A model generated the notes under the pieces. That model saw only the letters and a program-made list of their open reading frames with translations, did no database searches and was not told where the DNA came from. The position numbers and the translations under genes were made by a program. This document shows, piece by piece, positions 3,071 through 54,766 of a stretch of DNA of 64,000 nt. Numbering within the stretch: the stretch's first letter is position 1; each line of letters begins with the position of its first letter. Location of the stretch: NCBI GenBank assembly GCA_964597665.1, contig CAZQYX010000002.1:12723-76722 (forward strand), read 5' to 3'. This DNA comes from an uncultured Candidatus Peribacteria bacterium (lineage in GTDB: Bacteria > Patescibacteriota > Gracilibacteria > Peribacterales > Peribacteraceae).

Positions 3071-4753
3071 GTGTACGATAGTACACTACCATCATTTTTC
3101 ATGCTGCAATCAGCCACTCAATTCCGGCTTACACCGTGCCAGGAAAAAGCATTGGATATTCTCCAAAGGCAGGGGAATGTGTTTTTAACCGGTGCTGCCG
3201 GAACAGGGAAAAGCTTTCTTCTGGATCACTATTTGCGTGGGAAATCTTCCGAGGATTTTCCAATCGTCGCAAGTACGGGTGCCGCTGCTGTGATTGTGGG
3301 GGGTAGGACATTCCACAGTTTCTTCGGCCTCGGCATCATGGAAGGCGGCCTCGAAGCGACGATTCTGCGTGCAATGCGCAGCAAGAGACTGATGCGACGA
3401 TTGCAGCGCGCATGTTGCGTGATTATCGATGAGATTTCGATGCTTTCAGGTATGACGCTTAGTGCTGCAGAGAATATTGCAAGGGTCGCGAGGGGGAATC
3501 CCGAACCGTGGGGAGGTCTCCGGATCATCGCCGTCGGGGATTTCGCACAGCTTCCACCAATCGCACAAAGCGGTACCGAGAAAGATTGGGCCTTTCTCCA
3601 TCCTGTGTGGCAGGAGAGCAACTTCGAGCCGGCACTCCTGACGACCGTCATGCGAACGCAGGACACAAGTTTTCTCGAGATTCTGAATTTCGTGCGTGAA
3701 GGGATCGTCAATGACCGCGTGCACGCATTTCTGAATGAACGTACGTCAGCGTCGTCCGGCGAAGAAGAGGGAACCCGCTTGTATCCGCATCGGGCGCAGG
3801 CCGAGCAGTACAATTTGCTTCGGCTTCAGGCACTGCCGGAAGCAGTACATACCTTTCCAACGGAGTATGTCGGAGAAGAAAAATATATCGATGCGGCAAA
3901 GCGGGTGATCCCAATCCCCGATACGCTGCTCCTCAAAATCGGTGCACTTATTATGATGCGCAAGAACGATGCCACCGGGGAGTATCGCTACGTGAACGGA
4001 ACGCTCGGACATATTCGGAGTTTCAGCGAGGATGCTCTACATGTTCGCTTGCTTTCGGGTGAAGAGATCGATGTCGTTAGGGACAAATTCACCTGTCTGA
4101 ATGGTGACGGGAATGAAATCGCTGCCGCATGGAATTTCCCCGTCACGCTCGCGTGGGCAACGACGATCCACAAAGCCCAGGGAGCCTCGCTCGATCGAAT
4201 GATTGTCGATTTGCATCAGCTCTGGGAGCCGGGACAGGCGTACGTAGCACTCAGTCGCGTGCGCTCGGGAGCCGGGCTTAGGATAGAGCGCTGGAGTCCT
4301 GCTTCGATTCGCGCAGAGCGCATCGTGACTTCGTTCTATGATGGTCTTAGTGAGCGGGCGTTGAAATACAAGCCTCAGCCGTTTTTTGAGCCTCCAGTTC
4401 CTTCTCCCGAAGAAGAAAAGACGATGAAGAAGCATGCGCTCTCACAGAAAGAACGTCTTACGAGAACGAGACAGCTTCTTGAGGACGGCGCGGGCATTTC
4501 TCTCATCGCGGAGGCGTGTTCTGTGACGCAGAGCACGGTGCTCAATTACATTGAGAAGCTGATCGCACTTGGTAAGGCCCCGAGTCTTACGTACCTGATT
4601 GACGATCTCCCTGAGGTCGATGTCATCAGAGCACTGTATGAAGAACACGGTCTGCAGTTCATGAAACCTGTGTTCGAGGCACTCGAAGGACGCGTGCCGT
4701 ATGATCACCTGAAGCTCGTGCGTATCGTTCTTATTTCTCAATCGCCATCGTGA
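3071..4753 (+). CDS. Pif1/RecD-like SF1 DNA helicase with C-terminal HTH domain
   Basis: Walker A GAAGTGKSF, Walker B CVIIDEISM, and the block WATTIHKAQGASLD...AYVALSRVRS. The C-terminal ~90 aa is HTH-like (SLIAEACSVTQSTVLNYIEKL). The start may be ATG 3101 rather than GTG 3071. Confidence 0.85.
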   Translation: MYDSTLPSFFMLQSATQFRLTPCQEKALDILQRQGNVFLTGAAGTGKSFLLDHYLRGKSSEDFPIVASTGAAAVIVGGRTFHSFFGLGIMEGGLEATILRAMRSKRLMRRLQRACCVIIDEISMLSGMTLSAAENIARVARGNPEPWGGLRIIAVGDFAQLPPIAQSGTEKDWAFLHPVWQESNFEPALLTTVMRTQDTSFLEILNFVREGIVNDRVHAFLNERTSASSGEEEGTRLYPHRAQAEQYNLLRLQALPEAVHTFPTEYVGEEKYIDAAKRVIPIPDTLLLKIGALIMMRKNDATGEYRYVNGTLGHIRSFSEDALHVRLLSGEEIDVVRDKFTCLNGDGNEIAAAWNFPVTLAWATTIHKAQGASLDRMIVDLHQLWEPGQAYVALSRVRSGAGLRIERWSPASIRAERIVTSFYDGLSERALKYKPQPFFEPPVPSPEEEKTMKKHALSQKERLTRTRQLLEDGAGISLIAEACSVTQSTVLNYIEKLIALGKAPSLTYLIDDLPEVDVIRALYEEHGLQFMKPVFEALEGRVPYDHLKLVRIVLISQSPS

Positions 4754-5186
4754 TCGCTGTCTGACCTTCAGCGCTTGCGATCAGAAGAGAGAGCGTGCTC
4801 CCTTCCTTCGTGGCGGAGAAGATGGAGGTTCCACCTGCTTCCATTGCCGTGTCGACCGTCCACCCTCTCGAAGCGAGTTCTGTTTTGTAGTAGGCAGCGG
4901 CAACCGGCATCGTATCCGTTGTCGAGAGCACGACAGCCATTCCCGGTTTTCCTGTTTGAGGATTCACCGTAGCCGAGTACGAGACCGTCGAGCCCGGATA
5001 GGCCGGAGCATCATCCGGCCAACCCTCCGGCAGGCTCTGGCTTCCCATCTTCGCTGTTCCTTCCTCCGTTTCCACTTCCATCGCTCCATCCATCAACACA
5101 TCGACGTCAGCATTGTTTCCGCATCCGGACAGTAGTCCGAGAATAGTCAGCGAAGAGAGGAGCGTTACTACGGATTTTTGTGACAT
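4731..5186 (-). CDS. lipoprotein, function unknown
   Basis: Signal peptide with lipobox (LTILGLLSGC). 151 aa. Confidence 0.6.
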   Translation of the reverse strand: MSQKSVVTLLSSLTILGLLSGCGNNADVDVLMDGAMEVETEEGTAKMGSQSLPEGWPDDAPAYPGSTVSYSATVNPQTGKPGMAVVLSTTDTMPVAAAYYKTELASRGWTVDTAMEAGGTSIFSATKEGSTLSLLIASAEGQTAITMAIEK

Positions 5187-5214
5187 GAGACGAGAGAGAA
5201 AAGTGAGGACGGAA

Positions 5215-5565
5215 TTATCGCTTCTTGAATTGCCAGTACGACAGTGCCCAGATGAGGATCGAGACGAACATGATCCACGGAATGCCGGGCATCGTCATGA
5301 CGACTGCTTGCAGAGCAAGTAGGATGATGAAGAGGTAACCCGCATACGCCCATTCCTTCAGGACACGTGGAACGAAAGGGAAAACGATGGCGATCCCGCC
5401 GAGAATTTTCGCAGTTGCATTGAAGTACATCGTGTAGACGGGGTAGCCAAGCTGTACGAACACTTTTGCGACTTCTTCAGACTGTACGAAGTACATGATT
5501 CCGGAACCGACCATCAGCAGGAGCAGCAGAGTAGTAGGGATCCAGTAGGCGAGAGCTTTTTTCAT
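5215..5565 (-). CDS. DoxX-like membrane protein
   Basis: 116 aa with 3-4 TM helices. Resembles the DoxX_2 family in sequence and sits next to a YceI gene, a common pairing. Confidence 0.6.
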   Translation of the reverse strand: MKKALAYWIPTTLLLLLMVGSGIMYFVQSEEVAKVFVQLGYPVYTMYFNATAKILGGIAIVFPFVPRVLKEWAYAGYLFIILLALQAVVMTMPGIPWIMFVSILIWALSYWQFKKR

Positions 5566-5592
5566 AGAAAGGAAGAGGGAAGCGTGTCCTGA

Positions 5593-6201
5593 TTATTTCA
5601 TGAACACGAGTTTGATGTCCACGGGCACATTTGGCTCCAGAAGTTTACTTCCGTAAGTGTCTTTGCCGATACCGAAGTCCTTCCGCAGAAGTTCGTAGTG
5701 CGCAGTGAGGGCGCTGTCCGTGATCTCTGCAGTGAAGACAATCGATTTCGTTGTGCCCTTGATCGTCAGGTCACCCGTGATCTCGTACCAATTCCCTGCG
5801 GTTCCTACAATGCTCGTCGATGAAAATGTCGCCTTCGGGTGCTTTGTCGTGTCGAAGAACTCCTCGCTTTGCAAATGTCCGTCGAGTCCTTTTGCATCAG
5901 TTTTAACACTGGCGATACTGATTTCGGCGGTGATCTTCGCTTTCTCCAGATCGGCAGGATTCTCCGCATCGAGTGTCAGTGCCGCACCGTACTCATTGAA
6001 TTTTCCCTCATGGTTGACGACGCTGCTTTTTCCGACGAAGGAAATCACACTTTTACTCTTATCGATTCCCCGTACTTGACCACTGAACTCGGTATCCGAC
6101 TTTGGCGCAGGAGCTTTCTCGGTTTCCGAGAGAGAGGACGTCTGGCACGCGCTGAGCGTGAGGACCGTGAGAGCGAAGAGGGTGGCAGAGAGTTTCTTCA
6201 T
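5593..6201 (-). CDS. YceI-family lipoprotein (polyisoprenoid-binding-like)
   Basis: Lipobox LTLSAC. YceI-like blocks (SFVGKSSVVNHEGKF, SVKTDAKGLDGHLQSEEFFDT, GDLTIKGTTK). Start taken at MKKLSA (ATG 6201). Confidence 0.8.
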   Translation of the reverse strand: MKKLSATLFALTVLTLSACQTSSLSETEKAPAPKSDTEFSGQVRGIDKSKSVISFVGKSSVVNHEGKFNEYGAALTLDAENPADLEKAKITAEISIASVKTDAKGLDGHLQSEEFFDTTKHPKATFSSTSIVGTAGNWYEITGDLTIKGTTKSIVFTAEITDSALTAHYELLRKDFGIGKDTYGSKLLEPNVPVDIKLVFMK

Positions 6202-6283
6202 AGTGAATCTTGGGAAAGAAAAGAGGGATCTCATACTACATCCACAGTGTCAAAATTTCCAGCCTCCTGATTTCCAGCAGCGG

Positions 6284-7624
6284 TTATCGTTTTTTCTCTC
6301 GCAAACGAATACAACCCTGGAAGATGAGGAGAGAAACCAGTGCGACAGGCAGGGGGATGAGTGCCGTTTCCGGACTGAGCATACCTAGCACGAAGAGCGG
6401 TACGATACTCAGGAGTGCGAGGAGCAAACTTGCCCCTACGGCGAGGTCGTTCAGTCGTACATAGAAAGAGAGGAGGACTGCTGGAGCAATCGAAATACCG
6501 ATACCCCCGAGCGCGAATCCGATCGTGAGAATATTCTGGTTTACAATACTGATGAGAACGGCGAGCAGAATGACGGTGAGCATGATCATGCGCGTGAAGA
6601 GGCGCATGGAGGCGTCTTTGAAGCGATTTGAATAATTCAGAATATCGCGTGTCACGATCGACGACAGCACGAACGTGAACGTATCCGAGGACGAGAGCGA
6701 GACGGCGTAGAGGAGCACCATCCCAAGCTCCATGAATCCGGGTGGCAGAAGGTAAGAAAAGCCATGGACGAGCGCATTCTCGGGAGCGATCTCCGGAAAA
6801 AATTGTTTCGTAGCAAGCCCCATGATGCCGATGATTGCAGCGAGGAGCGGAATCATGCCCGAGGCAAACGAGAGTCCGCGTCGAAGCGCACGTTCATCTC
6901 TGGAAGCGAAGATGCGTTGCCAGAGGTCCGGTCCGACCATCGAGCTGATGGCTCCGATGATGAAGAAGCTGATCAGGTTGCCGCTCCCGAGTGTGACGGG
7001 ACTAAAGTCTGAGAGCTGAAATGAACTTTGCCCGACGAGAAAGAGGCCTACCGATACGCTCATGACGATCATGATCAGGAACTGGAAGACATCCGTTTTA
7101 ATAACCGCTTTCAGTCCTGCGAGGAAGAGATAGGTGAGGACGATGATGCCTCCGATACTGACCGAGATCTCATAGGAGATCGGGAAAATCGTCGAGAGTA
7201 CTTTTCCGCTGACGATGAGATTGACGACGAGGAGCAGCGAGAACCCGATCACGAGGATCACGGAGAACATGATCCCGCTGCATGGGCCGATCGTTTTAAA
7301 GAAGTACTCGGGGAGTGAGTAGATCCCGCGCTCGTCGGCGGTTTTCTTGATTCTCGGTGCAAATTTCCTGAGCACCAGAAAACCGCAACCGAATCCGACA
7401 AAGAGCCATAAGGCCGAGAGTCCGAACTGGTACACGTAGGCGATATAGATTGCGAGGGTCGCACCGTCGAAGAATCCGGCTGTCATCGTGATCGCGAGCG
7501 GGAGTCCCGCTACCTTTCGGTCGGCAATCATAAACCCTTCCTCTGTCTCATTCTTCGATGCGAACCATCCGATCATGAAGACGACAGCGATATACAGAAC
7601 GAAAAAGAGGATGCTCAGCTGCAT
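6284..7624 (-). CDS. sodium:solute symporter family transporter
   Basis: 446 aa polytopic membrane protein with an SSS-like N-terminus (FMIADRKVAGLPLAITMTAGFFDG). Confidence 0.75.
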   Translation of the reverse strand: MQLSILFFVLYIAVVFMIGWFASKNETEEGFMIADRKVAGLPLAITMTAGFFDGATLAIYIAYVYQFGLSALWLFVGFGCGFLVLRKFAPRIKKTADERGIYSLPEYFFKTIGPCSGIMFSVILVIGFSLLLVVNLIVSGKVLSTIFPISYEISVSIGGIIVLTYLFLAGLKAVIKTDVFQFLIMIVMSVSVGLFLVGQSSFQLSDFSPVTLGSGNLISFFIIGAISSMVGPDLWQRIFASRDERALRRGLSFASGMIPLLAAIIGIMGLATKQFFPEIAPENALVHGFSYLLPPGFMELGMVLLYAVSLSSSDTFTFVLSSIVTRDILNYSNRFKDASMRLFTRMIMLTVILLAVLISIVNQNILTIGFALGGIGISIAPAVLLSFYVRLNDLAVGASLLLALLSIVPLFVLGMLSPETALIPLPVALVSLLIFQGCIRLREKKR

Positions 7625-7649
7625 GATGATGCATTGTACTCGGTACTGT

Positions 7650-8438
7650 TCAAATCTCTACGTTCTTTGCCTGTTTCCAGCAGAGCTCGAAGATCACGAG
7701 GCGGAAGAAGTGCGCAAGGTCCCTATTCTCGATAATCGTGCACGTCAGTTGCCGCTCGGTATACGACATCAGCGCCAAGGAGTCATTCCACGAGAAAATC
7801 CCGGACTGCCAGACATATTGCTGTGGGAGTGTTCGGACCTGGATGCGGTATTCGCGGGACTTCGCAGCTACTTTGTTTGCGAAATCGCAAGGAGGGAAGA
7901 GGAGGCGCGTATGGATTTCTCGCTGTGCACGGCGCTGGAAATACTCTTCCAGATATTTCACGCCTACGAGTTCCGAGAAGAGTGATACATAGGAGAAGAC
8001 GAGGATCTCGCCCCGAGCCGAGAGCGTTTCCTCCAGCATCTTTTTAAATCCGTCCGCACCTTCGTAGAGTTTCACGGTCGGTACGGACTGATCTGTCGAT
8101 TGCAGTGATGTCAGAAGTTGCATGATATGTTCCATGCCTCCGCGTACACGCGTGATTTCACGTTCTTTCTGTGCAAGTAACCGAAGCAAGCTCACCGGTT
8201 CCTCGGCGACGATCAATCGGCGCTTTCCTTTCCGCGACTCGAAGAGGAGACCTTTCTCCAGCATTTGTCCAACGGCACTATGGACCGTCACACGGTTCAT
8301 CCGCATCGTCCGGGCCAATTCTTGTACCGAGCAAGGCCCTAACTGCAGGCACCTCATATAGATGCCCGATTCACGCGCATTCGCTCCAAAGAAGCGGAGT
8401 TGTTCGTGGATGCGTCCGGTATCGGTGCGTGTGAGCAT
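7650..8438 (-). CDS. TrmB-family transcriptional regulator
   Basis: HTH (RESGIYMRCLQLGPCSVQELARTMRMNRVTVHSAVGQMLEKGLL) plus a TrmB C-terminal domain. Paralogous in layout to 2255-3070. Confidence 0.8.
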   Translation of the reverse strand: MLTRTDTGRIHEQLRFFGANARESGIYMRCLQLGPCSVQELARTMRMNRVTVHSAVGQMLEKGLLFESRKGKRRLIVAEEPVSLLRLLAQKEREITRVRGGMEHIMQLLTSLQSTDQSVPTVKLYEGADGFKKMLEETLSARGEILVFSYVSLFSELVGVKYLEEYFQRRAQREIHTRLLFPPCDFANKVAAKSREYRIQVRTLPQQYVWQSGIFSWNDSLALMSYTERQLTCTIIENRDLAHFFRLVIFELCWKQAKNVEI

Positions 8439-8442
8439 AAAT

Positions 8443-8461
8443 GTAGAGTAAAGCTCTACAC
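8443..8461. promoter_or_regulatory. perfect inverted repeat TGTAGAG-N5-CTCTACA abutting the TrmB start codon (candidate operator)
   Basis: Read directly: tgtagag taaag ctctaca, 4 nt upstream of the TrmB ATG (minus strand). It lies in the divergent intergenic region shared with the Cys-rich gene. Confidence 0.3.
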
Positions 8462-8613
8462 AATATTATAATCTTTGATTTTGTTTACTGCAAGAGCAAA
8501 ATGAGCACTCAAAACATTAGAAGATGCATGAAATGTTCTATCGTTTTTGACAAAAAACAGCGTGTGCCTCACACTGCTTCCAGCATCAAATCTCCTTCAC
8601 TGCCCCCAATTAT

Positions 8614-9615
8614 ATGGATTTCGTCCATGAATTTCAACGTCTTCTTTTAAGCAAGCCTCGGTACAACCTGATTCAAAACGGGGCCGAAAACTGTGATTTT
8701 GCGGAAGCCGTACGGTCCAAGAATTGCTACTACTGCTTTGGGATCTTCTACTCGGAAGATGTGTACTACGCACGGTACTCGAGAAAGTGCATCAGCTGCA
8801 GCGGGCTCACGTTCTGCTTAGGTTGCGAGTGGTGCACGGAGTGCGTCGACTGCAACAACTGCTACATGGCAGATTACTGCCAGGATTGTGCAAACTGCAG
8901 AGACTGCCAATTCTGCAAGGACTGCTTCGGCTGCAGCAATTGTTTCGGGTGTGTCGGCCTCTATCAGAAGCAGTACCGAATCTTCAATGAGCAGTGCACG
9001 AAAGAAGAATATGAGAAACGAATGCAGTCCATCGATCTCAAGAGTGGAGAGCAGCGCAGTGCGATTCAGGAGAAGGTGAAGGAGCTTCGAACGAAGGCTC
9101 CAAACCTCGGCTTGTATCAGTTCAGCTGCGAAGATTGCATTGGTAATCATTTGTCCGAATGCAAGAATTGCTACCGCTGTCACGATTCGTTCGCGCTCGA
9201 AGATTGTCTCTTCTGCATCGAAACCAACGGTCATAAAAACTGTTGCGATCTATCGCACTGTTTCGAGTGTGAATGGTCGTATCAGTGCGTCCATTGCCCG
9301 AATTGTCATACATGCGACTTCTGCTTCCATTGTTCGTTCTGCAGTGACTCTGAATTCTGCGCCTTCAGTAAAAACATCAAGAACTGTTTCGGGTGCGTGT
9401 TTTTGGAGAACAAGGAGTACCACATCCTGAATAAGCCCTACTCTGCCGAGGAGTACCCGAAGGAAGTCGAGCGCATCCGTGCCGAGCTTCAGAAATCCGG
9501 CAAGTACAACTTGCTTCCGTTCTTCGCGTCGCCCTACGAGGAGCACCGGCTCAAAAACGAAACCGACAGTGCGATCCAAGCTCTTCCCCCGACTCTTTCC
9601 CCCTCCTCTCTATGA
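8614..9615 (+). CDS. cysteine-ladder protein (about 42 Cys in 333 aa), two internally duplicated modules, function unknown
   Basis: Runs of C-x2-C (CLGCEWCTECVDCNNC...CQDCANCRDCQFCKDCFGCSNCFGCV). Each module ends in NCFGCV.L..K.Y.I.N....EEY.K. No signal peptide. Confidence 0.8.
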   Translation: MDFVHEFQRLLLSKPRYNLIQNGAENCDFAEAVRSKNCYYCFGIFYSEDVYYARYSRKCISCSGLTFCLGCEWCTECVDCNNCYMADYCQDCANCRDCQFCKDCFGCSNCFGCVGLYQKQYRIFNEQCTKEEYEKRMQSIDLKSGEQRSAIQEKVKELRTKAPNLGLYQFSCEDCIGNHLSECKNCYRCHDSFALEDCLFCIETNGHKNCCDLSHCFECEWSYQCVHCPNCHTCDFCFHCSFCSDSEFCAFSKNIKNCFGCVFLENKEYHILNKPYSAEEYPKEVERIRAELQKSGKYNLLPFFASPYEEHRLKNETDSAIQALPPTLSPSSL

Positions 9616-9902
9616 GTACATCCGCTACCGACAATGTCATCATGCTCCAATGCACCAATCCCGAATGCGGGAAGGATTTCATCGTCATCTCGCAGGAAGC
9701 CGCTTTCTATGAGCAGAAGAAATTGCCGCTGCCCGATCACTGTCCGGCGTGTCGCCATCGTCAGCGCATGGCTTTGCGTAGTGAGCGGCAGCTCTATAAG
9801 CGCACGTGTGACAAATGCAAGAAGCAGATGGTCTCGGTCTATCCGCAGGAAGCACCGTACCTCGTCTACTGCACCAATTGTTTCTGGGAGAATATTGAGT
9901 GA
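9612..9902 (+). CDS. zinc-ribbon protein (zf-trcl-like, probable zinc-ribbon domain)
   Basis: CTNPECGKDF...FYEQKKLPLPDHCPACRHRQR then CDKCKK...YCTNCF. Its ATG overlaps the upstream stop (ATGA at 9612-9615). Confidence 0.75.
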   Translation: MSTSATDNVIMLQCTNPECGKDFIVISQEAAFYEQKKLPLPDHCPACRHRQRMALRSERQLYKRTCDKCKKQMVSVYPQEAPYLVYCTNCFWENIE

Positions 9903-10564
9903 GTTGGTTTTGATTTGAGAACCTCATGGAGATTCCTCGGCTTGTCCTCAAACTTTGGAAGTTATATGATAAATGGCCGATTTTCTTTATTCTATATGCA
10001 CCCACCAAATGCCGTATGCACTGGAACTGATGGACGATCCGAGCCCTTTGCAATGTTCCATATCAGAAGTAACTCTTCCGCTCATGATGGAGGGAGTGGA
10101 ACCAATGCGATCTATACGAATGCAATGTTTACTCAGAGCGAATGTCGACGCATGGATCCTGACGGGAACTGCATGGCGACGGGTAAATCATGCAATGCTC
10201 CTATGCACGCCATCAAATCGAGTGATCAATGCAGTATCGAAACATTGTTGAAGCTGACAGGCATTTACCATCAGTGGCTACAAACTAGGGTTCAAGGCGA
10301 TGGACAAATTTAAACTGGTGGCAGCACCAAGTGTGCGAGTTGCGAACTCTCTTTGTGAAGCAATGATGGGTTGGTATAAGGTTTTAAAATCCTTTTCCAA
10401 CCCATTTCATGCCACTTAGTGATGCACTTATTAGGGAATTCATGGTCATAGTGAAAGAAGAGCATGGGAAATAACTTACTTTTGAAGAAGCGCGAGAGTG
10501 GGGACTGAACATAGTGAATTTTTATGCATGTTTAGCGAGACAAAAATCAGGCAAAAATCCTTAA

Positions 10565-11716
10565 TTATTGTCCTTCATTGGGTATAACTGCCTCTGTAAC
10601 AAATTCGCGTGCGTCTTGTAAAAACCATAATCGACCCTCTCTTTTCAATGAACCCTTACAGCGGATTACATGATATGCCTTATGGGCATTAATTGCGCGG
10701 ACATAATCTTCACCGCTAAGTTCGATACGAATATGCTTGTTCTCATAGTCTTCATTTGAAGAAACAACTATGACTCGTCCGGTGCCACTGGGTGCCTCTC
10801 TTTCAAGTCTCATAATCCAGCCTTTTAACTCAAAGTCTTCTACGACATCAGACTCCCTCATTTTTTCGGCTGCTTGTTGCAAAATAGGTATTTGAGCTAC
10901 TGAAAACTCAAAATGCTTAGGAAGCTCTGTGGGTGGATCAAAACTAGGAGCCCAGTCCAAATCAATAACCACATTTGCAGATGGGTCATGAGAACGGATT
11001 CCGGCAATAGCCTCACAAAGGTTTGCGCTTACCCCACTCTCAACAATGGTATTAAAAGATTCTAAGTTTCCTTGGCTTAAAGCCTGAGCAGATGCTGTAT
11101 GTACTGCACTCAAGGCTTTAGAGAATTGTTTTAAAACTCTCCGTCCAAATAAATCTTCGGCATCATTAACTATCGACCTTTGGTCTGATTGTGGCAGCGG
11201 GGAATGGGCTGTTACTACATAGCTTCCGACCTCAGTTTGTCCTAGGCGTACACCTGCAATGTATTTCATGGCTTGTTCGTATTTTCTTCCGGGATAGACT
11301 GCTTTTTTAGTTATTTCCCCACAAGCTGCTGAGAGAATCATATCATATGTTTGCTTAATTAATTCAACACCATTGGCTAGAGGAATTTGTCCGTCTGTCG
11401 TACTTGGTCCTACCACACGTACTCTAACTACGTCGGTAGACACGGAGCTAATTTTTGCCAAAATTTCTTCAGGATTAACTTTTTCAACAACCGACAATGT
11501 ATGCAAAGCGTCACTGATTCGCTCAACAAAGTCATCAAGCATTCTTTTTTTCGGGGTCAAAATTTCATATTCCTCATTCTGAATTCTTTTAATCCAGACC
11601 TTGCCCAAGCCAAAGCTGCGTGTCTCCGTCCAATTGTTGAGTTCTAGATAGACCTCAAGTAAAGCTAAATCTAAAGCTTGGATTCTGCCTATAATTGATG
11701 AATTAAAACGACTCAT
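10565..11716 (-). CDS. hypothetical protein, 383 aa, no recognisable domain (third gene of the tRNA-Glu-linked cassette)
   Basis: Clean long ORF in an AT-rich segment. Its start overlaps the upstream stop by ATGA (11713-11716). Confidence 0.75.
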   Translation of the reverse strand: MSRFNSSIIGRIQALDLALLEVYLELNNWTETRSFGLGKVWIKRIQNEEYEILTPKKRMLDDFVERISDALHTLSVVEKVNPEEILAKISSVSTDVVRVRVVGPSTTDGQIPLANGVELIKQTYDMILSAACGEITKKAVYPGRKYEQAMKYIAGVRLGQTEVGSYVVTAHSPLPQSDQRSIVNDAEDLFGRRVLKQFSKALSAVHTASAQALSQGNLESFNTIVESGVSANLCEAIAGIRSHDPSANVVIDLDWAPSFDPPTELPKHFEFSVAQIPILQQAAEKMRESDVVEDFELKGWIMRLEREAPSGTGRVIVVSSNEDYENKHIRIELSGEDYVRAINAHKAYHVIRCKGSLKREGRLWFLQDAREFVTEAVIPNEGQ

Positions 11717-12303
11717 AAAGTTCCAGCGTTAGCTTGCCTCATAAGCTCGATTAAAGTTGCAGGAGTGAATACATTATCGCTTGGCAAAAGCACTGTAACA
11801 TTTGAAGTATTAGCTGTGTCAGGTTCGCCCTTCAGGCTTCTCCAATAGGCATGGTTTTTAAGAATTAGTTCAGCGGGAGTTTGATTTAACCATGTATTCA
11901 AATCTCTGGGCACAACTACAACGATTAATAATCGTGGGATGACGACCTCCTTTTTAAGGTCATTGTAATTTTTTAGAGTAAGCGGGTAATGCATGCCATC
12001 CGCATGCATCAGGTCATCTCGATATGTGCATTTTAGCTGCACATCAATTTGTGGTGATTTCTTTGTTCCGTGTGCTCCGTGCGAATAAATGGATGTATCG
12101 ACACTATCAATGTCCAAAGCTCCGGTTTTTGCAGATTCAAAAAGAGCAGCTGTTGCAACCGCAGAGACAAATGTTCTGCTGAATAATTCCATTTGGAGTT
12201 CTTCGATCATCAGAAAATAAACATATCTAAGTATGAAACTTTTGTCATTAGCTGTTAGTAATTGCTGCATAGGATTAGGGTGTACAATTGTACACCCAAT
12301 CAT
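11713..12303 (-). CDS. DUF4365-like restriction-endonuclease-fold protein
   Basis: Pattern E..FSRTFV.AVA ... LDIDSVDTSIY ... PQIDVQLKCT matches the DUF4365 / PD-(D/E)xK layout (acidic residues followed by Q-L-K). Called from memory of the family; not searched. Confidence 0.6.
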   Translation of the reverse strand: MIGCTIVHPNPMQQLLTANDKSFILRYVYFLMIEELQMELFSRTFVSAVATAALFESAKTGALDIDSVDTSIYSHGAHGTKKSPQIDVQLKCTYRDDLMHADGMHYPLTLKNYNDLKKEVVIPRLLIVVVVPRDLNTWLNQTPAELILKNHAYWRSLKGEPDTANTSNVTVLLPSDNVFTPATLIELMRQANAGTL

Positions 12304-12312
12304 ATATATGAT

Positions 12313-12828
12313 TCAAGTATTTAAGTAGAATTTAAAATTTCTATCCGCTTTGATAAGCCTCTCTGCGCTGTGTGCTGCAATTAATAGACCCCTAGCCTTA
12401 GAAACATAGTCCTTCATATTAAATCCCCAAAAGTCGGTATCTCTTCCTCCCGCATCTACAAACTGCTTGCTTGAGAACACAGCATGTTCATGAACTTCTT
12501 TAGATGGAAGGCAATAAAAATGTGCAGGGGGCTTATCAAGATTATTCTTTGGAATTCCAACAAATATGTACCATTTGTCAGCGCCAACCCATCGCAAAAC
12601 TTGTGGTTTCTTAAGAATGACTTTTTGGTTTCCTTCCTCATAGGACTTTACTTGAATCCAAAGCACACGGTCAGAAGCTGTATCTTCAATACAAAGATCG
12701 CTATCGCGGAAATTTCCTCCTAAATAAACAACATTCCAGCCATTTCTTGCTAGTTCTGCTGCCGCGTAGAATTCTGCCGATTTTCCGGAGCTCGACATGT
12801 ACAGGAGAGTTAGTTGGCCGAAGGCCAT
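12313..12828 (-). CDS. small PD-(D/E)xK-like nuclease-fold protein
   Basis: AEFYAAAELARNGWNVVYL..NFRDSDLCIED....VLWIQVKS follows the E...G-W...D-x-D...(I/V)QVK pattern of small endonuclease-fold proteins. The start could be the internal ATG at 12798. Confidence 0.5.
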   Translation of the reverse strand: MAFGQLTLLYMSSSGKSAEFYAAAELARNGWNVVYLGGNFRDSDLCIEDTASDRVLWIQVKSYEEGNQKVILKKPQVLRWVGADKWYIFVGIPKNNLDKPPAHFYCLPSKEVHEHAVFSSKQFVDAGGRDTDFWGFNMKDYVSKARGLLIAAHSAERLIKADRNFKFYLNT

Positions 12829-12856
12829 GAGCGAGGCACCGCAGTGCCGAGTCGAG

Positions 12857-12931
12857 TGGCAGCCCCAGGGAGAATTGAACTCCCGTTAACGGATTGAAAA
12901 CCCGCTGTCCTAACCATTAGACGATGGGGCC
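12857..12931 (-). tRNA. tRNA-Glu (anticodon UUC), CCA encoded
   Basis: Folded by hand: GGCCCCA/TGGGGCT acceptor, D-loop with GG, anticodon stem GCGGG/TCCGT with loop TTTTCAA, T-arm GGGAG-TTCAATT-CTCCC, then GCCA. 75 nt. Confidence 0.92.
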
Positions 12932-12936
12932 GGACG

Positions 12937-13035
12937 AAATTGAAAATGGAAAATTGATAATTGAGAATGAACGATAACAACCCCAGATGCAAGGCGTGGT
13001 CTAATTCTCAATTCTCAATTGTCAATTGTCAATTC
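12937..13035. repeat. periodic inverted repeat, ATTGAGAAT-type arms (12937-12968 and 13004-13035)
   Basis: Left arm aaattgaaaatggaaaattgataattgagaat and right arm attctcaattctcaattgtcaattgtcaattc are imperfect reverse complements separated by about 35 nt. Confidence 0.6.
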
Positions 13036-13087
13036 TGCTCATGTCGCCGAGAATTAGCAACAAGCTCTATTTCTGCGCTCACTTCCT

Positions 13088-13489
13088 ATGTCTCTCTCCA
13101 GCTTCGCCCTCGTCCTCAGTGTCTTCTTCTACGTCTTCGGTTTCCCCTTGGTGTTCTGCGATGAAGACTATGCCGTATGGCGAAAGAAGGTCCTGAAGGA
13201 CGGTAATATGGTGCGTATCATCGGCATGGCGTTCACCATGATCGCCGCGGTGACACTCAGGCAGCAGTGGAAGGTCAGTCAGGATGGTGAGGGGATCGTC
13301 ATTCTCTTCGCATGGATCGTTCTTCTGAAGAGCTTATTCATGGCATGGTGGCCGAAGTACTATCAAGGCATCCGGTCCTACATCGAAGATGAATATCTGG
13401 CGATTCCTGCCGTGAGCGTGACTGCAGGCTTTCTTATGGTTCTTCTTGGTGCGATTTTCCTGTACTTTGGGATCCTCCTCCCTCAGTAA
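13088..13489 (+). CDS. membrane protein, function unknown
   Basis: 133 aa with 4 predicted TM segments. Its stop overlaps the next start (TAATG). Confidence 0.55.
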   Translation: MSLSSFALVLSVFFYVFGFPLVFCDEDYAVWRKKVLKDGNMVRIIGMAFTMIAAVTLRQQWKVSQDGEGIVILFAWIVLLKSLFMAWWPKYYQGIRSYIEDEYLAIPAVSVTAGFLMVLLGAIFLYFGILLPQ

Positions 13490-14052
13490 TGGAAACATTG
13501 GCCCTCATCAGTGCGGTTTTTCTTCTCGTGCTCGTGCTGATTTTCTTCTTTTTGCTGATTGCCAGTACGTCGGTCCAGGCACTCTGGATGGTTCCATTCG
13601 TTCCGACTCCAAGAGCCATCATCGACGGGATGGTCGAGTTTGCGGATCTGAAGCCGAATCAGATTGTCTACGATCTCGGTGCGGGAGACGGACGCGTGCT
13701 CTTCGCTGCGGAGAAGCGTGAGCCGACAATACGGGGGATTGGTTACGAAGGTGCGATCGGTGTGTGGCTCCTTGCGAAGCTTCGCATTGCGATGCGGCGC
13801 AGCAAGATCACGATGCGGCGTGAGGATTTTATGAAGAATGTCGATTTCTCAGACGCCGATGTCATTTTCACCTATCTCTCGATTGCAAGTATGAAGAAGC
13901 TGAAGCCGAAATTTGATGTGCAACTCAAGGACGGTGCGCGTGTCGTGACGCATGCGTTTCGTGTGCCGGATATGGTTCCCGAGAAAGAGAGGATGGTGAA
14001 TATGCCCATGGGGAGAGGCAGTCGCATCTACTCGTACGTCTGGAAGAAGTAG
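13489..14052 (+). CDS. class I SAM-dependent methyltransferase with N-terminal TM anchor
   Basis: Motif I VYDLGAGDGRVL preceded by a hydrophobic N-terminus. Confidence 0.8.
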   Translation: METLALISAVFLLVLVLIFFFLLIASTSVQALWMVPFVPTPRAIIDGMVEFADLKPNQIVYDLGAGDGRVLFAAEKREPTIRGIGYEGAIGVWLLAKLRIAMRRSKITMRREDFMKNVDFSDADVIFTYLSIASMKKLKPKFDVQLKDGARVVTHAFRVPDMVPEKERMVNMPMGRGSRIYSYVWKK

Positions 14053-14053
14053 C

Positions 14054-15328
14054 TCAAAGCTGGATCACTGCAAACGGGAGTGACGATGCGACACCCGCGA
14101 TCCAGATGATCGCATGCAGCAACGCCCAGCAGAAATATCCCATGAGAAGCCCAAGTGGTAACCAGAGTATGCCGAGGATTGTTGCGGTGAAACCGAGGAG
14201 CATCGAAAGCGGAAGCAGCGGAGCGACGAGAATGTTTGTGACAGGGGCGATCAGCGAGATTTGCTTGAAGAGAATCATCGTGAGGGGAAGCGTTGCGATT
14301 TGTGCTGCGAGCGTTGCGACCAGTGACTCACGCAGTGCCAGTGTTTCCGGAACGAATCGTAGAAGTTTCTTGAGCGGTGCCGACAGCTCTGCAATGCCGA
14401 TGACCGCGAGGAAGCTCAGTTGGAATCCTGCGTCGTACCAGAGATAGAGAGGGTTCCAGAGGAGCATGAAGAATGCAGTCCAGAGGATGGAGAGACGGAC
14501 GGTCGTCTGTCTTCCTGTCTGGAGTGCAAGGAGACCAAGAATACCCATGATAGAAGCACGGACAACCGATGCGCTCGCGCCGACGAAGATCGTGAAGACA
14601 ACGATGGACATCACGAGGAGCGGGAATCGTTTCTTGAGCGGTATCCAGAAGAAGATTCCTGAAAGCAGTGCAAGGATGATCGTCACGTTGTACCCCGAGA
14701 TCGCGATGATGTGCGTGATGCCCGCCATGCGGAAATCTTCGCTCACGTGCTCCGGAATGCCGCGACGGGAACCCGTGAGAAGCCCCGCAAGAAGCGATGC
14801 GTGCGGTTCGGGGAAGATACGGTTGATACGCTCCTCGAAGCCTGTCCTGAGTGCATACAGATTCCGGAAGAAACGATCGGAGAGCGAAAGTGGATCACTA
14901 CCTGCCTCCGCTCTTTCGATCTTTGCTCGCTGCATCAGTGCATAGATTCCCCGCACGCTCAGGTACTCGTCATACGCGAAATCTTCGATTGTTCCGGGTC
15001 TCGAGAGTTTCCCGGTAACGGTGACCCTTGCTCCATAGGTGTACTGCGGCCAACCGCCCATATCACTGACCAGAATTTTTCCGGTGACGGGAATAGCATT
15101 CTTCTTTGTATCAATCAGCGTATCGGCCATCACCGTATATTTCGTGACCGTTGGACGAACGTCTGCTGCTTCGACGATTTTGCCGTGCACGGTCACGACC
15201 GTATCGTTTGCATAGAAATCAATATCCGAAGACGTCGAAATATGCGCGGGTCCTCCGAAAAAATGCTGAAGAGTGATGAACGTAAAAAACATTCCCAAAA
15301 AGCCATAGCTAAGAGTCGATGCTTTCAT
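14054..15328 (-). CDS. comEC: ComEC/Rec2-family competence membrane protein (no C-terminal metallo-beta-lactamase domain)
   Basis: OB-like DUF4131 region (VTVHGKIV...ARVTVTGKL) followed by the competence domain (LLAGLLTGSRRGIP...FRMAGITHIIAISGYNV). 424 aa. Confidence 0.85.
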   Translation of the reverse strand: MKASTLSYGFLGMFFTFITLQHFFGGPAHISTSSDIDFYANDTVVTVHGKIVEAADVRPTVTKYTVMADTLIDTKKNAIPVTGKILVSDMGGWPQYTYGARVTVTGKLSRPGTIEDFAYDEYLSVRGIYALMQRAKIERAEAGSDPLSLSDRFFRNLYALRTGFEERINRIFPEPHASLLAGLLTGSRRGIPEHVSEDFRMAGITHIIAISGYNVTIILALLSGIFFWIPLKKRFPLLVMSIVVFTIFVGASASVVRASIMGILGLLALQTGRQTTVRLSILWTAFFMLLWNPLYLWYDAGFQLSFLAVIGIAELSAPLKKLLRFVPETLALRESLVATLAAQIATLPLTMILFKQISLIAPVTNILVAPLLPLSMLLGFTATILGILWLPLGLLMGYFCWALLHAIIWIAGVASSLPFAVIQL

Positions 15329-16152
15329 GATGATGCACGGATATTTGTGAGTGCCGTATCAAGCATGATCCACTCATCGATCGAGAGTGTCTGTGGTCTT
15401 CGCATCGCATCGATTCCGACCTGTGTCATTGCTTCACTACCGCTTGGCATTTCGCCGATGGTATTCCTGAGCATTTTCCGGCGCTTGCTGAATGCCAGCT
15501 TCGCAAGCTTGAGGATTCGCTGTATTGCTTCCGGACTAGCTTTCGGCTGAGAAAAACATTCGATGTGAATCACAGCGGAATTGACCTTCGGCGGAGGCAG
15601 AAAACAACTGGGTGGCACGAGTCGAACCAGCGAAGGTATGCCAAAAAGTCGCACGAGGATTGTCAGCATACTGTCACTTTCCTCTGAGCAGATATTCTCT
15701 GCGACCTCTCGCTGAATGAGAAGTGTTAGCGACGTCGGCCTTCGGGGCGATTCGAGGAGCGAATGTGTGAGGAGGGGCGACGTGATGTGGTAGGGGATAT
15801 TCGCAACGATTTTGTACGCTTCGGTTGGCATCGGTGCCTGCAACGCATTCGCTTCGATGATCGTAAGATTCTTCGGCATCACGGCTTTGTCATTCATCGT
15901 GAAGATCCTCAGAAGTGGAATCATCCGTGGATCAATTTCGATTGCCGTGACAGAACCGGCTCGGCTGAGAAGCTCGCGCGTCAGGATGCCGATACCGGGA
16001 CCGATCTCGACGATTGCATCGGTTTTTTGAATATCGGCAACCGTCACGATGTCTTCGAGGACGGACTCGTCGGTCAGGAAGTGCTGACCGAGGTCCGTGT
16101 CCAGCCGTATTCCGCGCCCGCGTAAGAAATCGCGTACTGCATCGTCTATCAT
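15325..16152 (-). CDS. rsmA: 16S rRNA (adenine1518/1519-N6)-dimethyltransferase
   Basis: LGQHFLTDESVLEDIV, EIGPGIGILT and ANIPYHITSP motifs. Start taken at ATG 16152. Confidence 0.9.
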   Translation of the reverse strand: MIDDAVRDFLRGRGIRLDTDLGQHFLTDESVLEDIVTVADIQKTDAIVEIGPGIGILTRELLSRAGSVTAIEIDPRMIPLLRIFTMNDKAVMPKNLTIIEANALQAPMPTEAYKIVANIPYHITSPLLTHSLLESPRRPTSLTLLIQREVAENICSEESDSMLTILVRLFGIPSLVRLVPPSCFLPPPKVNSAVIHIECFSQPKASPEAIQRILKLAKLAFSKRRKMLRNTIGEMPSGSEAMTQVGIDAMRRPQTLSIDEWIMLDTALTNIRASS

Positions 16153-16193
16153 GGGTACAGTATGCCTGAATCTTCTTCTTTCCATTCTCTCTC

Positions 16194-51217: not shown

Positions 51218-51685
51218 TCAGCGGAAAAATAGGATCCAAATGTATGGTGATGAAAGTAGATTGTTCAGGTAGTGCAGAATGACACTAGGCCAAATGGATT
51301 TTGTTTGAAGTGTTATCCAACAGAAAATAGGACTAATCAGCAGTGTTGCATACAAGATCTGAGTGGTGAGTTGTTGCGGGCTCAACCAGAAAATATTTTT
51401 TGCATGCCATGCACCAAAGAGGATTGATACGAAAATAATGGCTTTTGGCTGAGAAATTTTCTTAGTTATATTTTCCAATACTATGCCGCGAAACAGGATC
51501 TCTTCATAGATGGGTACGAATAGAATGGAGAGCGAAAGCGGATATCCGAAGAATGTACCCAATGATTGATATTCCATATATCCAACAACTATCGTCGAAA
51601 GATAAAGAAAAATGACAATGCCGATTTGCATCGGACCCGAAAGTCGTCCTACTTTTCTTGGGATGAGAAAGTCGAATGTGAACAT
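51218..51685 (-). CDS. CPBP-family intramembrane glutamic endopeptidase (CAAX protease-like)
   Basis: EEILFRG, FGAWH and HYLNN motifs. Start moved to ATG 51685 because the track ORF overlaps tRNA-Cys. Confidence 0.8.
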   Translation of the reverse strand: MFTFDFLIPRKVGRLSGPMQIGIVIFLYLSTIVVGYMEYQSLGTFFGYPLSLSILFVPIYEEILFRGIVLENITKKISQPKAIIFVSILFGAWHAKNIFWLSPQQLTTQILYATLLISPIFCWITLQTKSIWPSVILHYLNNLLSSPYIWILFFR

Positions 51686-51710
51686 AAGAATCTTATTCCT
51701 TTCATGATTT

Positions 51711-51785
51711 TGGAGGTGCCGGCGAGGATCGCACTCGCGCATGGGGGATTTGCAGTCCCCTGCCTTACTGCTTGGCTACGGCACC
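51711..51785 (-). tRNA. tRNA-Cys (anticodon GCA), CCA encoded, atypical D- and T-loops
   Basis: Perfect acceptor GGTGCCG/CGGCACC. Anticodon arm GGGGA-CTGCAAA-TCCCC. T-arm GCGAG-TGCGATC-CTCGC. 75 nt. Confidence 0.82.
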
Positions 51786-51838
51786 ACGCAGGCGGGATTG
51801 TACTGATTTTTCGGTTGCGTCACTAGGCGAGAAAAAAA

Positions 51839-51927
51839 GTTTGGTAAGTTTAGTAGGTTCGGTAGGTTGAGAATATTGAGGTTTCGATACTTTCCACACC
51901 TACCAAACATACCCCACCTACCAAACC
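51839..51927. repeat. GGTAGGTT-type periodic inverted repeat (copy B5)
   Basis: Left arm gtttggtaagtttagtaggttcggtaggttg and right arm acacctaccaaacataccccacctaccaaacc. Confidence 0.75.
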
Positions 51928-51991
51928 TTTCCCTGTTCCAAAGAAAGTATTGCAGAATGATTGTTTTAGGGAGTACACTTCCCGAAATACC

Positions 51992-53044
51992 ATGACTCCT
52001 GCCAAGAAAGCAGCGGCCGTTTCAAATAATCCTAAAGATTATTGCATCGCAACGATCGGCAGTCACACGGCACTGCAAATTCTGAAGGGTGCGCGGGACG
52101 AAGGCATTCCGAATCTTGTGGTTTGCAAGAGAGGAACAGAACGCGTGTACAAAAGCTTCGGTGTTGCGGACGATATTCTCATTGTCGACGATTGGAGCGA
52201 GTGGGATAAGAAAGTCGAGCCGGAACTGATCAAGCGCAACGCCATCATCATCCCGCACGGATCGTTCATTGCGTACATGGGGCCTGAGAAAGTGCAGACG
52301 ATGAAGAGCATGTACTACGGAACGAAAGAAATTCTCGAGTGGGAGAGCAACAGAACGATGGAACGAAAGTGGCTTCTGGATGCCGATATTCTCATGCCTC
52401 GCGTCTTCGAGAAACCGGAGGACATCGACTGTCCTGTCATCGTCAAGTTCCATGGAGCGGGAGGAGGGTTCGGGTACTTCGTCGTCAGGTCGGCCGAGCA
52501 GTTCTACGAGGTGAAGAATCGCAAGTACCCCGACGAGACCGATTTCAACATTCAGGAGTACATCATCGGCGTGCCGCTCTACATTCACTACTTCTACTCG
52601 CCGATCACAAAGGAACTGGAGATCATGAGCTTCGACAAGCGGTATGAAAGCAATGCGGACTCCATCGGTCGCATTAAAGCGGAGGACCAGCTCGCCGCGA
52701 AGATCCACACGAGCTACACGATCGTCGGCAATATTCCCATCGTCGTTCGAGAATCCATGCTTCCCGAATTCTTCGCAATGGGTGAGCGTGTCGTCGCCGC
52801 AAGCAGGAAGCTCTGCGGCAAGGGTTTGTTTGGCTCATTCTGCCTCGAGACAATCGTGACACGAAAACTGCAGACGTTCGTGTTCGAGATCAGCGCAAGA
52901 ATCGTTGCCGGTACGAATCCGTTCATCGAAGGTTCTCCTTACACTGCACTCAAATATGACGTGCCGATGAGCACCGGCCGTCGCATTGCGAGGGATATTA
53001 AGCAGGCGATAGAGGCTGGAAGGCTTGCGGAGATTTTGGGCTAA
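51992..53044 (+). CDS. purP: PurP-like ATP-grasp enzyme (archaeal-type FAICAR synthetase family), paralogue 1
   Basis: IATIGSHTALQILKGARDEGI...IIPHGSFIAYMG (DUF1246-like N-domain) plus an ATP-grasp C-domain (VIVKFHGAGGGFGYF). Start at ATG 51992. Confidence 0.78.
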   Translation: MTPAKKAAAVSNNPKDYCIATIGSHTALQILKGARDEGIPNLVVCKRGTERVYKSFGVADDILIVDDWSEWDKKVEPELIKRNAIIIPHGSFIAYMGPEKVQTMKSMYYGTKEILEWESNRTMERKWLLDADILMPRVFEKPEDIDCPVIVKFHGAGGGFGYFVVRSAEQFYEVKNRKYPDETDFNIQEYIIGVPLYIHYFYSPITKELEIMSFDKRYESNADSIGRIKAEDQLAAKIHTSYTIVGNIPIVVRESMLPEFFAMGERVVAASRKLCGKGLFGSFCLETIVTRKLQTFVFEISARIVAGTNPFIEGSPYTALKYDVPMSTGRRIARDIKQAIEAGRLAEILG

Positions 53045-53118
53045 CAGTTTACAAATGAAGCACCTTGTTTTTCTCAACTTCTATTCATACTTCATAATTC
53101 TTACTTCATAATCCACGT

Positions 53119-54285: not shown

Positions 54286-54370
54286 ATGAAATTGTAGAGA
54301 TGCAGAATGAGATTGGAGTTCATTTGCAGATTTTCTTTTGGCAGGATTCTCTTTTAAAGCACTTTGCTAT

Positions 54371-54616
54371 TTAAAATTGAAGCGTTATACCAGCACTTTT
54401 ACATAGAGTATCTAATGAACTTTGCGCATGTGCCTGAAGTTGCTGAACTTCTTCCGCACCGATATGACGCCATCCCCTTGCGCCTATACGACAAACAAGG
54501 CTGCTGACGATTCCTGCTTGTATATCTAAGAGCAGTGTAAAGTCAGGAGCTCTTTCTCCAAGACGCTTTTTTGCCTCGTCTATGAGGGCTAATCCTTCGT
54601 TATAGTTGGGTGACAT
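54371..54616 (-). CDS. hypothetical protein (81 aa)
   Basis: ORF in an AT-rich patch. No family recognised. Confidence 0.4.
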   Translation of the reverse strand: MSPNYNEGLALIDEAKKRLGERAPDFTLLLDIQAGIVSSLVCRIGARGWRHIGAEEVQQLQAHAQSSLDTLCKSAGITLQF

Positions 54617-54766
54617 AGGTTCAGTACTATACTTCTAAAGAATTCATCCGTCAAATATAGAGTTTTGTTCTACATTGGTGGAGCCTTAGCGAATGATTGG
54701 GGACTTTTCAGGTCTTCACTTGTTGAAATTCTTGCTGAAGCCAGCGACAGGGAGTAAAGAATTGTC

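Follow-up and report, generated by a model that had tools for sequence, protein, structure and literature searches.

The 64,000-nt stretch of DNA analysed here (the window) belongs to contig CAZQYX010000002.1 of an uncultured Candidatus Peribacteria bacterium (GCA_964597665.1). It contains three adjacent genes, numbered 1 to 3 from a tRNA-Glu(UUC) gene onwards, that lie in a horizontally acquired AT-rich insert of 2.5 kb, within a variable region located 3' of this tRNA gene in a Peribacteria-like genome of the candidate phyla radiation (CPR). According to their sequences, genes 2 and 3 are a divergent instance of PDC-M02, a phage defence candidate that is already catalogued, and not a new system. 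Gene 1, which encodes a small protein with a predicted PD-(D/E)xK nuclease fold, is not part of this pair system and is an independent module. The identity of the pair and the two-module anatomy of the insert can be held with high confidence. The overall explanation, i.e. an islet combining two independent modules, one of which is a defence candidate relying on a sensor-effector mechanism, is as a composite somewhat more probable than improbable. All positions are those of the window, in which the tRNA-Glu gene and genes 1 to 3 are on the minus strand.

Identity and conservation of the gene 2-gene 3 pair

The protein encoded by gene 2 matches the Pfam family DUF4365 (PF14280) with 68.1 bits for a cut-off of 24.3 (E 1.1e-18), in agreement with the family proposed in the initial annotation of the window. 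It also matches 25 PDC-M02A hidden Markov models (HMMs) of PADLOC, the best alignment (E 4.3e-51) extending over residues 34-194 of the protein and positions 5-164 of the 167 positions of the profile. Among 63 relatives, residues D64, D69, Q89 and K91, numbered on the longest open reading frame (ORF), are invariant and E39 is 81% conserved. The QxK pair corresponds to the active site that was inactivated experimentally in the DUF4365 domain of the SPARDA-type nuclease TmuRE, where the equivalent residues are Q62 and K64 (PMC10810196). As judged from its sequence, gene 2 encodes a stand-alone DUF4365 (DREN-type) PD-(D/E)xK nuclease whose active-site residues appear intact.

Gene 3 had been initially described as matching nothing recognizable. 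This holds for Pfam and NCBIfam, in which it has no match (a Pfam scan of 56 PDC-M02B members also found no family), but not for PADLOC, in which 42 PDC-M02B HMMs match its product. The best of these matches (E 4.8e-106) aligns residues 12-374 with positions 11-373 of a profile of 380 positions, and the protein retains 19 of the 19 invariant residues of the family. Sequence searches against the PDB, done with gene 2 alone and with profiles of all three families, returned nothing meaningful.

PDC-M02 was proposed by Payne et al. in 2024 as a two-gene phage defence candidate on the basis of "guilt-by-embedding" (CAS_00021, FAM_01850>>FAM_00842; 894 RefSeq instances). It is one of 145 candidates originating from cassettes found inside BREX, DISARM or type I restriction-modification (R-M) systems, all of which entered PADLOC as predictions, unassayed (bioRxiv 10.1101/2024.01.29.577857). 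The idea of an undescribed system, put forward when the window was first annotated, has therefore to be abandoned, genes 2 and 3 being PDC-M02A and PDC-M02B (hereafter A and B).

A scan of one genome per species for relatives of gene 3 gave more than 580 loci, the best 80 of which were examined for their context. In 75 of these 80 loci, distributed among many phyla, a same-strand DUF4365 gene immediately precedes the gene 3 relative; of the five loci that depart from this arrangement, three are truncated by the end of a contig. Furthermore, the stop codon of A and the start codon of B overlap by 4 nt in 67 of the 75 loci. The pair is thus co-inherited and translationally coupled.

The contexts of the pair are diverse. 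In a set of 44 loci, families of type I R-M systems are its most recurrent large neighbours, although the majority of neighbours are unrelated housekeeping genes. In three related contigs, the pair is embedded between the hsdS and hsdR genes of a type I R-M system. In the same contigs (L089 at 6292-7482, and also L090 and L091), hsdS and the pair are separated by a gene that immediately precedes the DUF4365 gene; its conserved product of 377-396 aa, with no Pfam match on record, may be a lineage-specific third component. In Mycobacterium abscessus prophages, the pair constitutes the first two genes, at the very left extremity, the product of the first gene being related to the A family with an hhalign probability of 99.7%. 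It is found on at least 17 plasmids and has counterparts among PHROG families, and a protein of Leptospira phage LE1 (Q6NE06) is a full-length structural match of gene 3. The closest relative of the window pair (43% identity) belongs to another Peribacteria metagenome-assembled genome. There, the pair stands alone, without gene 1, 20 nt after a tmRNA gene, and has a G+C content (GC) of 0.37 in a genome of about 0.65. Altogether, the pair carries the signature of a defence module and moves like one; the defence-type module initially suggested for the three genes is thus retained for genes 2 and 3, gene 1 falling outside it.

Gene 1 and the anatomy of the insert

The product of gene 1 has no match in Pfam (even at E <= 1), NCBIfam or PADLOC, and only nine close homologues were found among 5.8 billion clusters. 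A profile search nevertheless revealed a wider superfamily of proteins of about 150 aa, with 361 representatives. In 60 divergent relatives, D44, Q59 and K61 are invariant and E25 nearly so; 10 of the 60 aligned sequences match PF11645 (PDDEXK_5, best E 5e-7) and five match Mrr_cat. The AlphaFold2 (AF2) model of the protein (pLDDT 79) was matched by Foldseek to the DREN domain of SPARDA, Hjc, PvuII and I-Ssp6803I, with E-values ranging from 5e-4 to 1e-2 and probabilities of about 1.0. Both the conserved residues and this model support a PD-(D/E)xK fold. The restriction-endonuclease fold proposed at the outset for genes 1 and 2 is thus retained as a PD-(D/E)xK-type fold with conserved acidic and QxK residues, and the motifs then quoted (DSDLCIED...WIQVKS and LDIDSVD...IDVQLKCT) are indeed present, their D, Q and K residues being invariant in homologues. 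When the profiles of the gene 1 and gene 2 families are compared with each other, the result is not significant (probability 4%), although their D and QxK columns align.

The three genes are not conserved neighbours. Indeed, no gene 1 homologue is present at any of the 80 PDC-M02 loci examined, and no PDC-M02 pair at any of the six loci of close gene 1 homologues. These close homologues are found after a tRNA-Gln gene and a TIR gene, in an island with a diversity-generating retroelement, PDDEXK_1, HerA and an MmeI-like methylase, or after gyrA. In the first case (L001 4-1601, GCA_964513925.1), a tRNA-Gln gene precedes a TIR-domain gene, after which comes a homologue 76% identical to gene 1. 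This locus is a second tRNA-adjacent islet with a gene 1-type nuclease and a different partner. The neighbours of 75 members of the superfamily are heterogeneous (T5orf172, ResIII, GmrSD_N, MazE and others), and neither a constant partner nor a recurrent methyltransferase was found beside them.

The spacing of the genes is also informative. Considering the longest ORFs, the ORF list and ARAGORN confirm that three same-strand genes begin 28 nt after the CCA end of tRNA-Glu(UUC), with a gap of 9 nt between genes 1 and 2. However, gene 1 probably starts at Met11 (12798), 58 nt from the tRNA, since the first residue of four of the eight homologues aligns with Met11 or with the residue preceding it, and since residues 1-14 are predicted to be disordered. 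The relatives of gene 2 have about 165 aa and 89% of them have a Met in the column of Met32, which is most likely the start of gene 2 (12210). The real spacer between genes 1 and 2 would therefore be 102 nt long (GC 0.30), and the 9-nt gap is probably an artefact of the longest ORF. Of the tight packing from which a single operon had been deduced, only the ATGA stop/start overlap between genes 2 and 3 (11713-11716) stands, and it is the sole robust sign of coupling among the spacings. Table 1 gives the layout of the locus.

Table 1. Features of the tRNA-Glu-adjacent insert, in window positions
Feature	Position	Strand	Description
tRNA-Glu(UUC)	12857-12931	-	ARAGORN (ttc); Rfam RF00005, 62 bits
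Small hairpin GGCAC-TGCG-GTGCC	12835-12848	-	Read from sequence; left border of the insert
Gene 1	12313-12828	-	Lone small protein, predicted PD-(D/E)xK fold; longest ORF 171 aa
Spacer between gene 1 and the corrected start of gene 2	12211-12312	-	102 nt, AT-rich, GC 0.30
Gene 2 (PDC-M02A)	11713-12210	-	165 aa; longest ORF to 12303, 196 aa
Gene 3 (PDC-M02B)	10565-11716	-	383-aa partner protein
AT-rich non-coding tail	10314-10564	-	GC 0.40; approximate right border of the insert

The spacer includes promoter-like hexamers and a perfect 20-nt palindrome, GGGTGTACAATTGTACACCC, at 12278-12297, and a terminator-like hairpin is found at 10315-10330, in the AT-rich tail that follows gene 3. The promoter and terminator scans gave counts at or near background and are suggestive only. 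Upstream of the PDC-M02A genes of 61 loci, no conserved operator was detected, the best palindrome arms being equal to those of shuffled controls; the palindrome of the window is therefore a local feature and not a general one of PDC-M02A genes. Contigs of four independent assemblies (ERZ27247828, ERR3094294, ERR3094295 and ERR3094296) start or end within 12295-12309, a 15-nt stretch at the junction of genes 1 and 2, beside this palindrome, and a further contig begins within the tRNA, at 12886. The recurrent ends at the junction might correspond to strain variants differing in their cassette content.

Gene 1 is considered to be separate because of its absence from the 80 pair loci, the unrelated contexts of its own homologues and the 102-nt spacer with its promoter-like hexamers. 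It probably has its own transcription unit. The three genes could also be viewed as one operon that encodes a single system, with two nucleases as effectors and one large protein as their partner. Such a system would account for their common strand, adjacency and very similar GC and GC3 (GC at third codon positions), for the 9-nt gap between the longest ORFs and for the lack of a convincing intrinsic terminator after gene 1, the palindrome having no T run behind it. This explanation is nevertheless highly improbable, being largely refuted by the 80 PDC-M02 loci devoid of gene 1 homologues. It is also at odds with the six gene 1 loci devoid of PDC-M02, with the closest relative of the pair, which abuts tmRNA without gene 1 in Peribacteria, with the spacer resulting from the corrected start of gene 2, and with the record of the cassette as two genes by Payne et al. 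(bioRxiv 10.1101/2024.01.29.577857).

The most likely view of gene 1 is that of a further solitary nuclease, defence-type or selfish, which came to occupy the same hot spot. In a narrower version, it would be a free-standing selfish gene similar to homing endonucleases, or an orphan type II or IV restriction nuclease, that does not cooperate with its neighbours. The PDDEXK_5 matches of 10 of its 60 relatives, the resemblance of its model to the intron-encoded I-Ssp6803I, the location of gene 1 and of one homologue just downstream of tRNA genes, and the lack of both a conserved partner and a recurrent methyltransferase are consistent with this version. On the other hand, these matches are weak, as Pfam gives no match for gene 1 itself and I-Ssp6803I comes only 33rd, at E 1e-2, and the neighbours found elsewhere are often of defence type (TIR, HerA/MmeI-like methylase, GmrSD, ResIII). 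This narrower version is thus a possible but tentative one.

The foreign composition noticed in the initial annotation was fully borne out by calculation. The GC of the cassette is 0.408 versus 0.513 +/- 0.023 in the other 2.3-kb windows (minimum 0.443; z -4.6), and no other stretch of this size in the window is as AT-rich. The GC of 12301-12360, estimated at about one quarter, is 0.25. The GC3 of genes 1, 2 and 3 are 0.33, 0.35 and 0.32, respectively, versus 0.57-0.69 in 14 other genes, and the AT-rich part is limited to 10.3-12.85 kb.

The host is Peribacteria-like, the best named matches of its GlnA being those of Peribacteria (77% identity). Comparison with a sister genome (L188), which has a GlnA 90% identical to that of the window and the same gene order on both flanks, delimits the variable region. 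Whereas the tRNA-Glu genes of the two genomes share 98.8% identity over 85 nt, blastn similarity ends at 12848, 9 nt past the CCA, and resumes only at 5190; the first of these limits coincides with the small hairpin. No homologue of genes 1 to 3 is present at the corresponding site of L188. Because of both its atypical composition and its absence from this site, the segment is regarded as a horizontally acquired islet. The 7.7 kb of the window concerned (5190-12848, from tRNA-Glu to an AF_1845-family gene) are replaced in L188 by an unrelated segment of 3.4 kb (3291-6734) with host-like GC. Besides the cassette, they encode a 132-aa ORF, a TrmB-like regulator, an SSF transporter, YceI, DoxX and two overlapping plus-strand genes: one (8614-9615) encodes a 333-aa protein very rich in CxxC-type cysteine repeats, without Pfam or PADLOC match, and the next (9612-9902) a 96-aa treble-clef zinc-finger protein (zf_Tbcl). 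A search for an island-free variant of the strain found none, all contigs with identical flanking proteins being 100% identical to the window; the empty site was found in the sister species instead.

The mode of insertion was also considered. No match to an integrase or recombinase family was obtained with any ORF scanned in the interval 6284-16185. The search for a direct repeat that could act as an attachment site gave, as the only repeat of the tRNA 3' end, an 11/13 match at 10318-10330. This repeat was dropped as a border marker, as it is not above chance (three matches of this stringency in the window versus 0.9 expected) and is also part of the terminator-like hairpin. The integrase gene and the tRNA 3' direct repeat by which integrase-mediated tRNA-inserted islands are recognized are therefore not found in this insert.

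Two other features of the window deserve mention. Immediately upstream of the tRNA-Glu gene and of a divergent gene encoding a 133-aa protein, two inverted arrays (12937-12968 and 13003-13036) of about 4.6-4.9 heptamer repeats AATTGAN are located 34 nt apart. These arrays, which are unique in the window (six pattern matches versus 0.13 expected) and lie outside the DNA similarity to L188, are possibly a regulator binding array. A second stretch of lower GC (0.43-0.47), at 51218-55420, includes an ORF encoding an Rce1-like CAAX protease that abuts a tRNA-Cys gene, two tandem paralogues with DUF1246 and DUF1297, which we take to be PurP-like, and a HEPN-domain protein (54767-55420). None of these proteins has a PADLOC match.

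Proposed function of the pair

The AF2 model of gene 3 (pLDDT 90.5) consists of an N-terminal alpha/beta domain, a helical middle part and a C-terminal domain (around residues 292-375). As the Foldseek matches of this last domain agree with its beta1-3/alpha/beta4-5 topology (beta292-306, beta313-319, beta328-333, alpha335-346, beta350-360 and beta363-375), which is the canonical topology of OB folds, gene 3 is predicted to end in an OB fold. The PDB matches (E around 1e-2, probability around 1) cover only this fold of about 95 residues and include SSB, the anticodon-binding N-domains of Asn- and Lys-tRNA synthetases, RPA, Stn1 and PolC. The N-terminal domain and helical middle, in which the invariant motifs RLGQTExGS and GxSANLCEA are found, matched no solved structure in the same PDB search.

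A defence function of the pair is reasonably probable. Its most likely mechanism can be sketched as follows. The A and B proteins would assemble into a complex in which B would be the sensor or regulator of an infection cue, most plausibly a nucleic acid that is single-stranded or aberrant in another way, or a phage protein bound to it. B would then release or activate the A nuclease, and the degradation of DNA by activated A would either destroy the invader or abort the infection. The activation of A by B would be analogous to that of the same nuclease domain in SPARDA, which is switched on by its Argonaute sensor. This specific scheme, in which an OB-fold partner licenses a DUF4365 nuclease, is rather doubtful as such. 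A broader proposal is slightly more doubtful still when all its parts are taken jointly: PDC-M02 would provide an Argonaute-independent DREN-nuclease immunity, in which a partner whose fold is largely unmatched detects phage single-stranded DNA (ssDNA) or a phage SSB-type protein by its C-terminal OB domain and licenses the nuclease, the gene 1 family would be a novel class of minimal, stand-alone nucleases with a defence role, and both would accumulate at tRNA and tmRNA hot spots in small CPR genomes.

Several points count against the explanation that we favour. PDC-M02 is listed merely as a candidate by Payne et al. (bioRxiv 10.1101/2024.01.29.577857), a search of a literature library for PDC-M02 and PDC-M found neither a mention of PDC-M02 nor a functional study, and most pair loci have no recognizable defence genes adjoining. 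The sensor and effector roles, the complex and the trigger are all inferred. The OB-fold matches have weak E-values, and the most conserved residues of this domain are on its helix, off the classical ssDNA-binding face; the OB domain may therefore mediate protein contacts instead. A-B fusion proteins, which could have served as Rosetta-stone evidence, amount to two among the 120 matches listed, one N-terminally truncated and the other with an aberrant N-terminus. They were given little weight, since they could result from frameshifts at the 4-nt overlap. Lastly, the equal GC3 of the three genes of the window would also fit a joint arrival.

Two other functions can be considered for the pair. 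Genes 2 and 3 might form a toxin-antitoxin or addiction module, in which a DUF4365 toxin restrained by B would stabilize mobile DNA instead of sensing phages. The tight coupling of the genes, their presence on plasmids, in prophages and in small islets, the many loci without defence neighbours and a nuclease devoid of a sensor domain of its own all agree with such a role. However, the putative antitoxin would be large (380 aa), multi-domain and encoded downstream, which is unusual for type II toxin-antitoxin systems, and it is by recurrent embedding, as seen for the pair in type I R-M operons, that the same method led to validated defence systems. Moreover, toxin-antitoxin and abortive-infection functions can coexist. 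Overall, a module devoted to addiction is improbable.

A still less probable function, which can be viewed as quite unlikely, would be a service to mobile elements themselves, in replication, recombination or anti-defence, with an SSB-like OB protein and a resolvase-type nuclease, instead of host immunity. It would be in line with the SSB, RPA and RecO-type domains found among the OB matches, with the occurrence of resolvases among PD-(D/E)xK nucleases and with the presence of the pair in phages and prophages. Against it, the pair stands alone, without any other mobile-element gene, in the window and in two other loci (L007 and L087), it is embedded within R-M operons, and a position at the extremity of prophages typically characterizes accessory (moron) or defence genes and not replication modules.

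Significance and comparison with known systems

This analysis replaces a supposed new three-gene system by a catalogued two-gene candidate and an unrelated lone nuclease gene. PDC-M02 is widespread (894 instances in RefSeq, and over 580 genome loci in the present scan) and still a candidate. The present data provide a starting model for it, namely a free DREN-type nuclease strictly coupled at the translational level to a partner with a predicted C-terminal OB fold, together with the invariant residues of both. They also reveal that PDC-M02 reaches CPR (Peribacteria) genomes in the form of minimal AT-rich insertions beside tRNA and tmRNA genes. Compared with PDC-M02 elsewhere, the window pair has A and B HMM matches over nearly their full length and the same order, strand and 4-nt overlap. 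It differs by its location, in a tRNA-Glu-adjacent islet and not inside an R-M, BREX or DISARM system, by the presence of an additional unrelated nuclease gene upstream, and by its divergence, since it is only 35-43% identical to its nearest relatives.

Gene 1 establishes a small family of uncharacterised nucleases, which is undetected by the four profile libraries searched. It resembles the archaeal Hjc resolvases, PvuII, I-Ssp6803I (PDDEXK_5) and Mrr_cat by its predicted fold and its conserved E...D...QxK residues, but no Pfam, NCBIfam or PADLOC model detects it. Furthermore, it differs from small PD-(D/E)xK nucleases by an additional C-terminal region in which a DRNF motif is invariant and by a context devoid of methyltransferase and intron.

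Among established defence systems, Hachiman combines a DUF1837 nuclease (HamA) with a helicase (HamB), and Shedu relies on a DUF4263 nuclease. Like the pair, as modelled here, both are compact mobile operons in which a PD-(D/E)xK effector is controlled by, or fused to, a nucleic-acid-sensing part. However, no PADLOC model of either system is found among the best 25 matches of gene 2 or gene 3, all of which are PDC-M02 models, and B has no helicase or ATPase domain in Pfam, which distinguishes it from HamB.

SPARDA, which associates a short prokaryotic Argonaute with a DUF4365/DREN-APAZ protein, is a further point of comparison. Differences are obvious: none of the three window proteins has a Piwi- or APAZ-type Pfam match, the window nuclease is a free protein of 165 aa and not an APAZ fusion, and gene 3 has no Argonaute-like structural match, its PDB fold matches being only OB folds. 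Nevertheless, the SPARDA nuclease belongs to the same family as gene 2 and has the same QxK active-site signature. This nuclease is described as silent until its partner senses invader DNA, after which it degrades DNA non-specifically (PMC10810196). Such an activation is a plausible working analogy for the way in which B might control the A nuclease.

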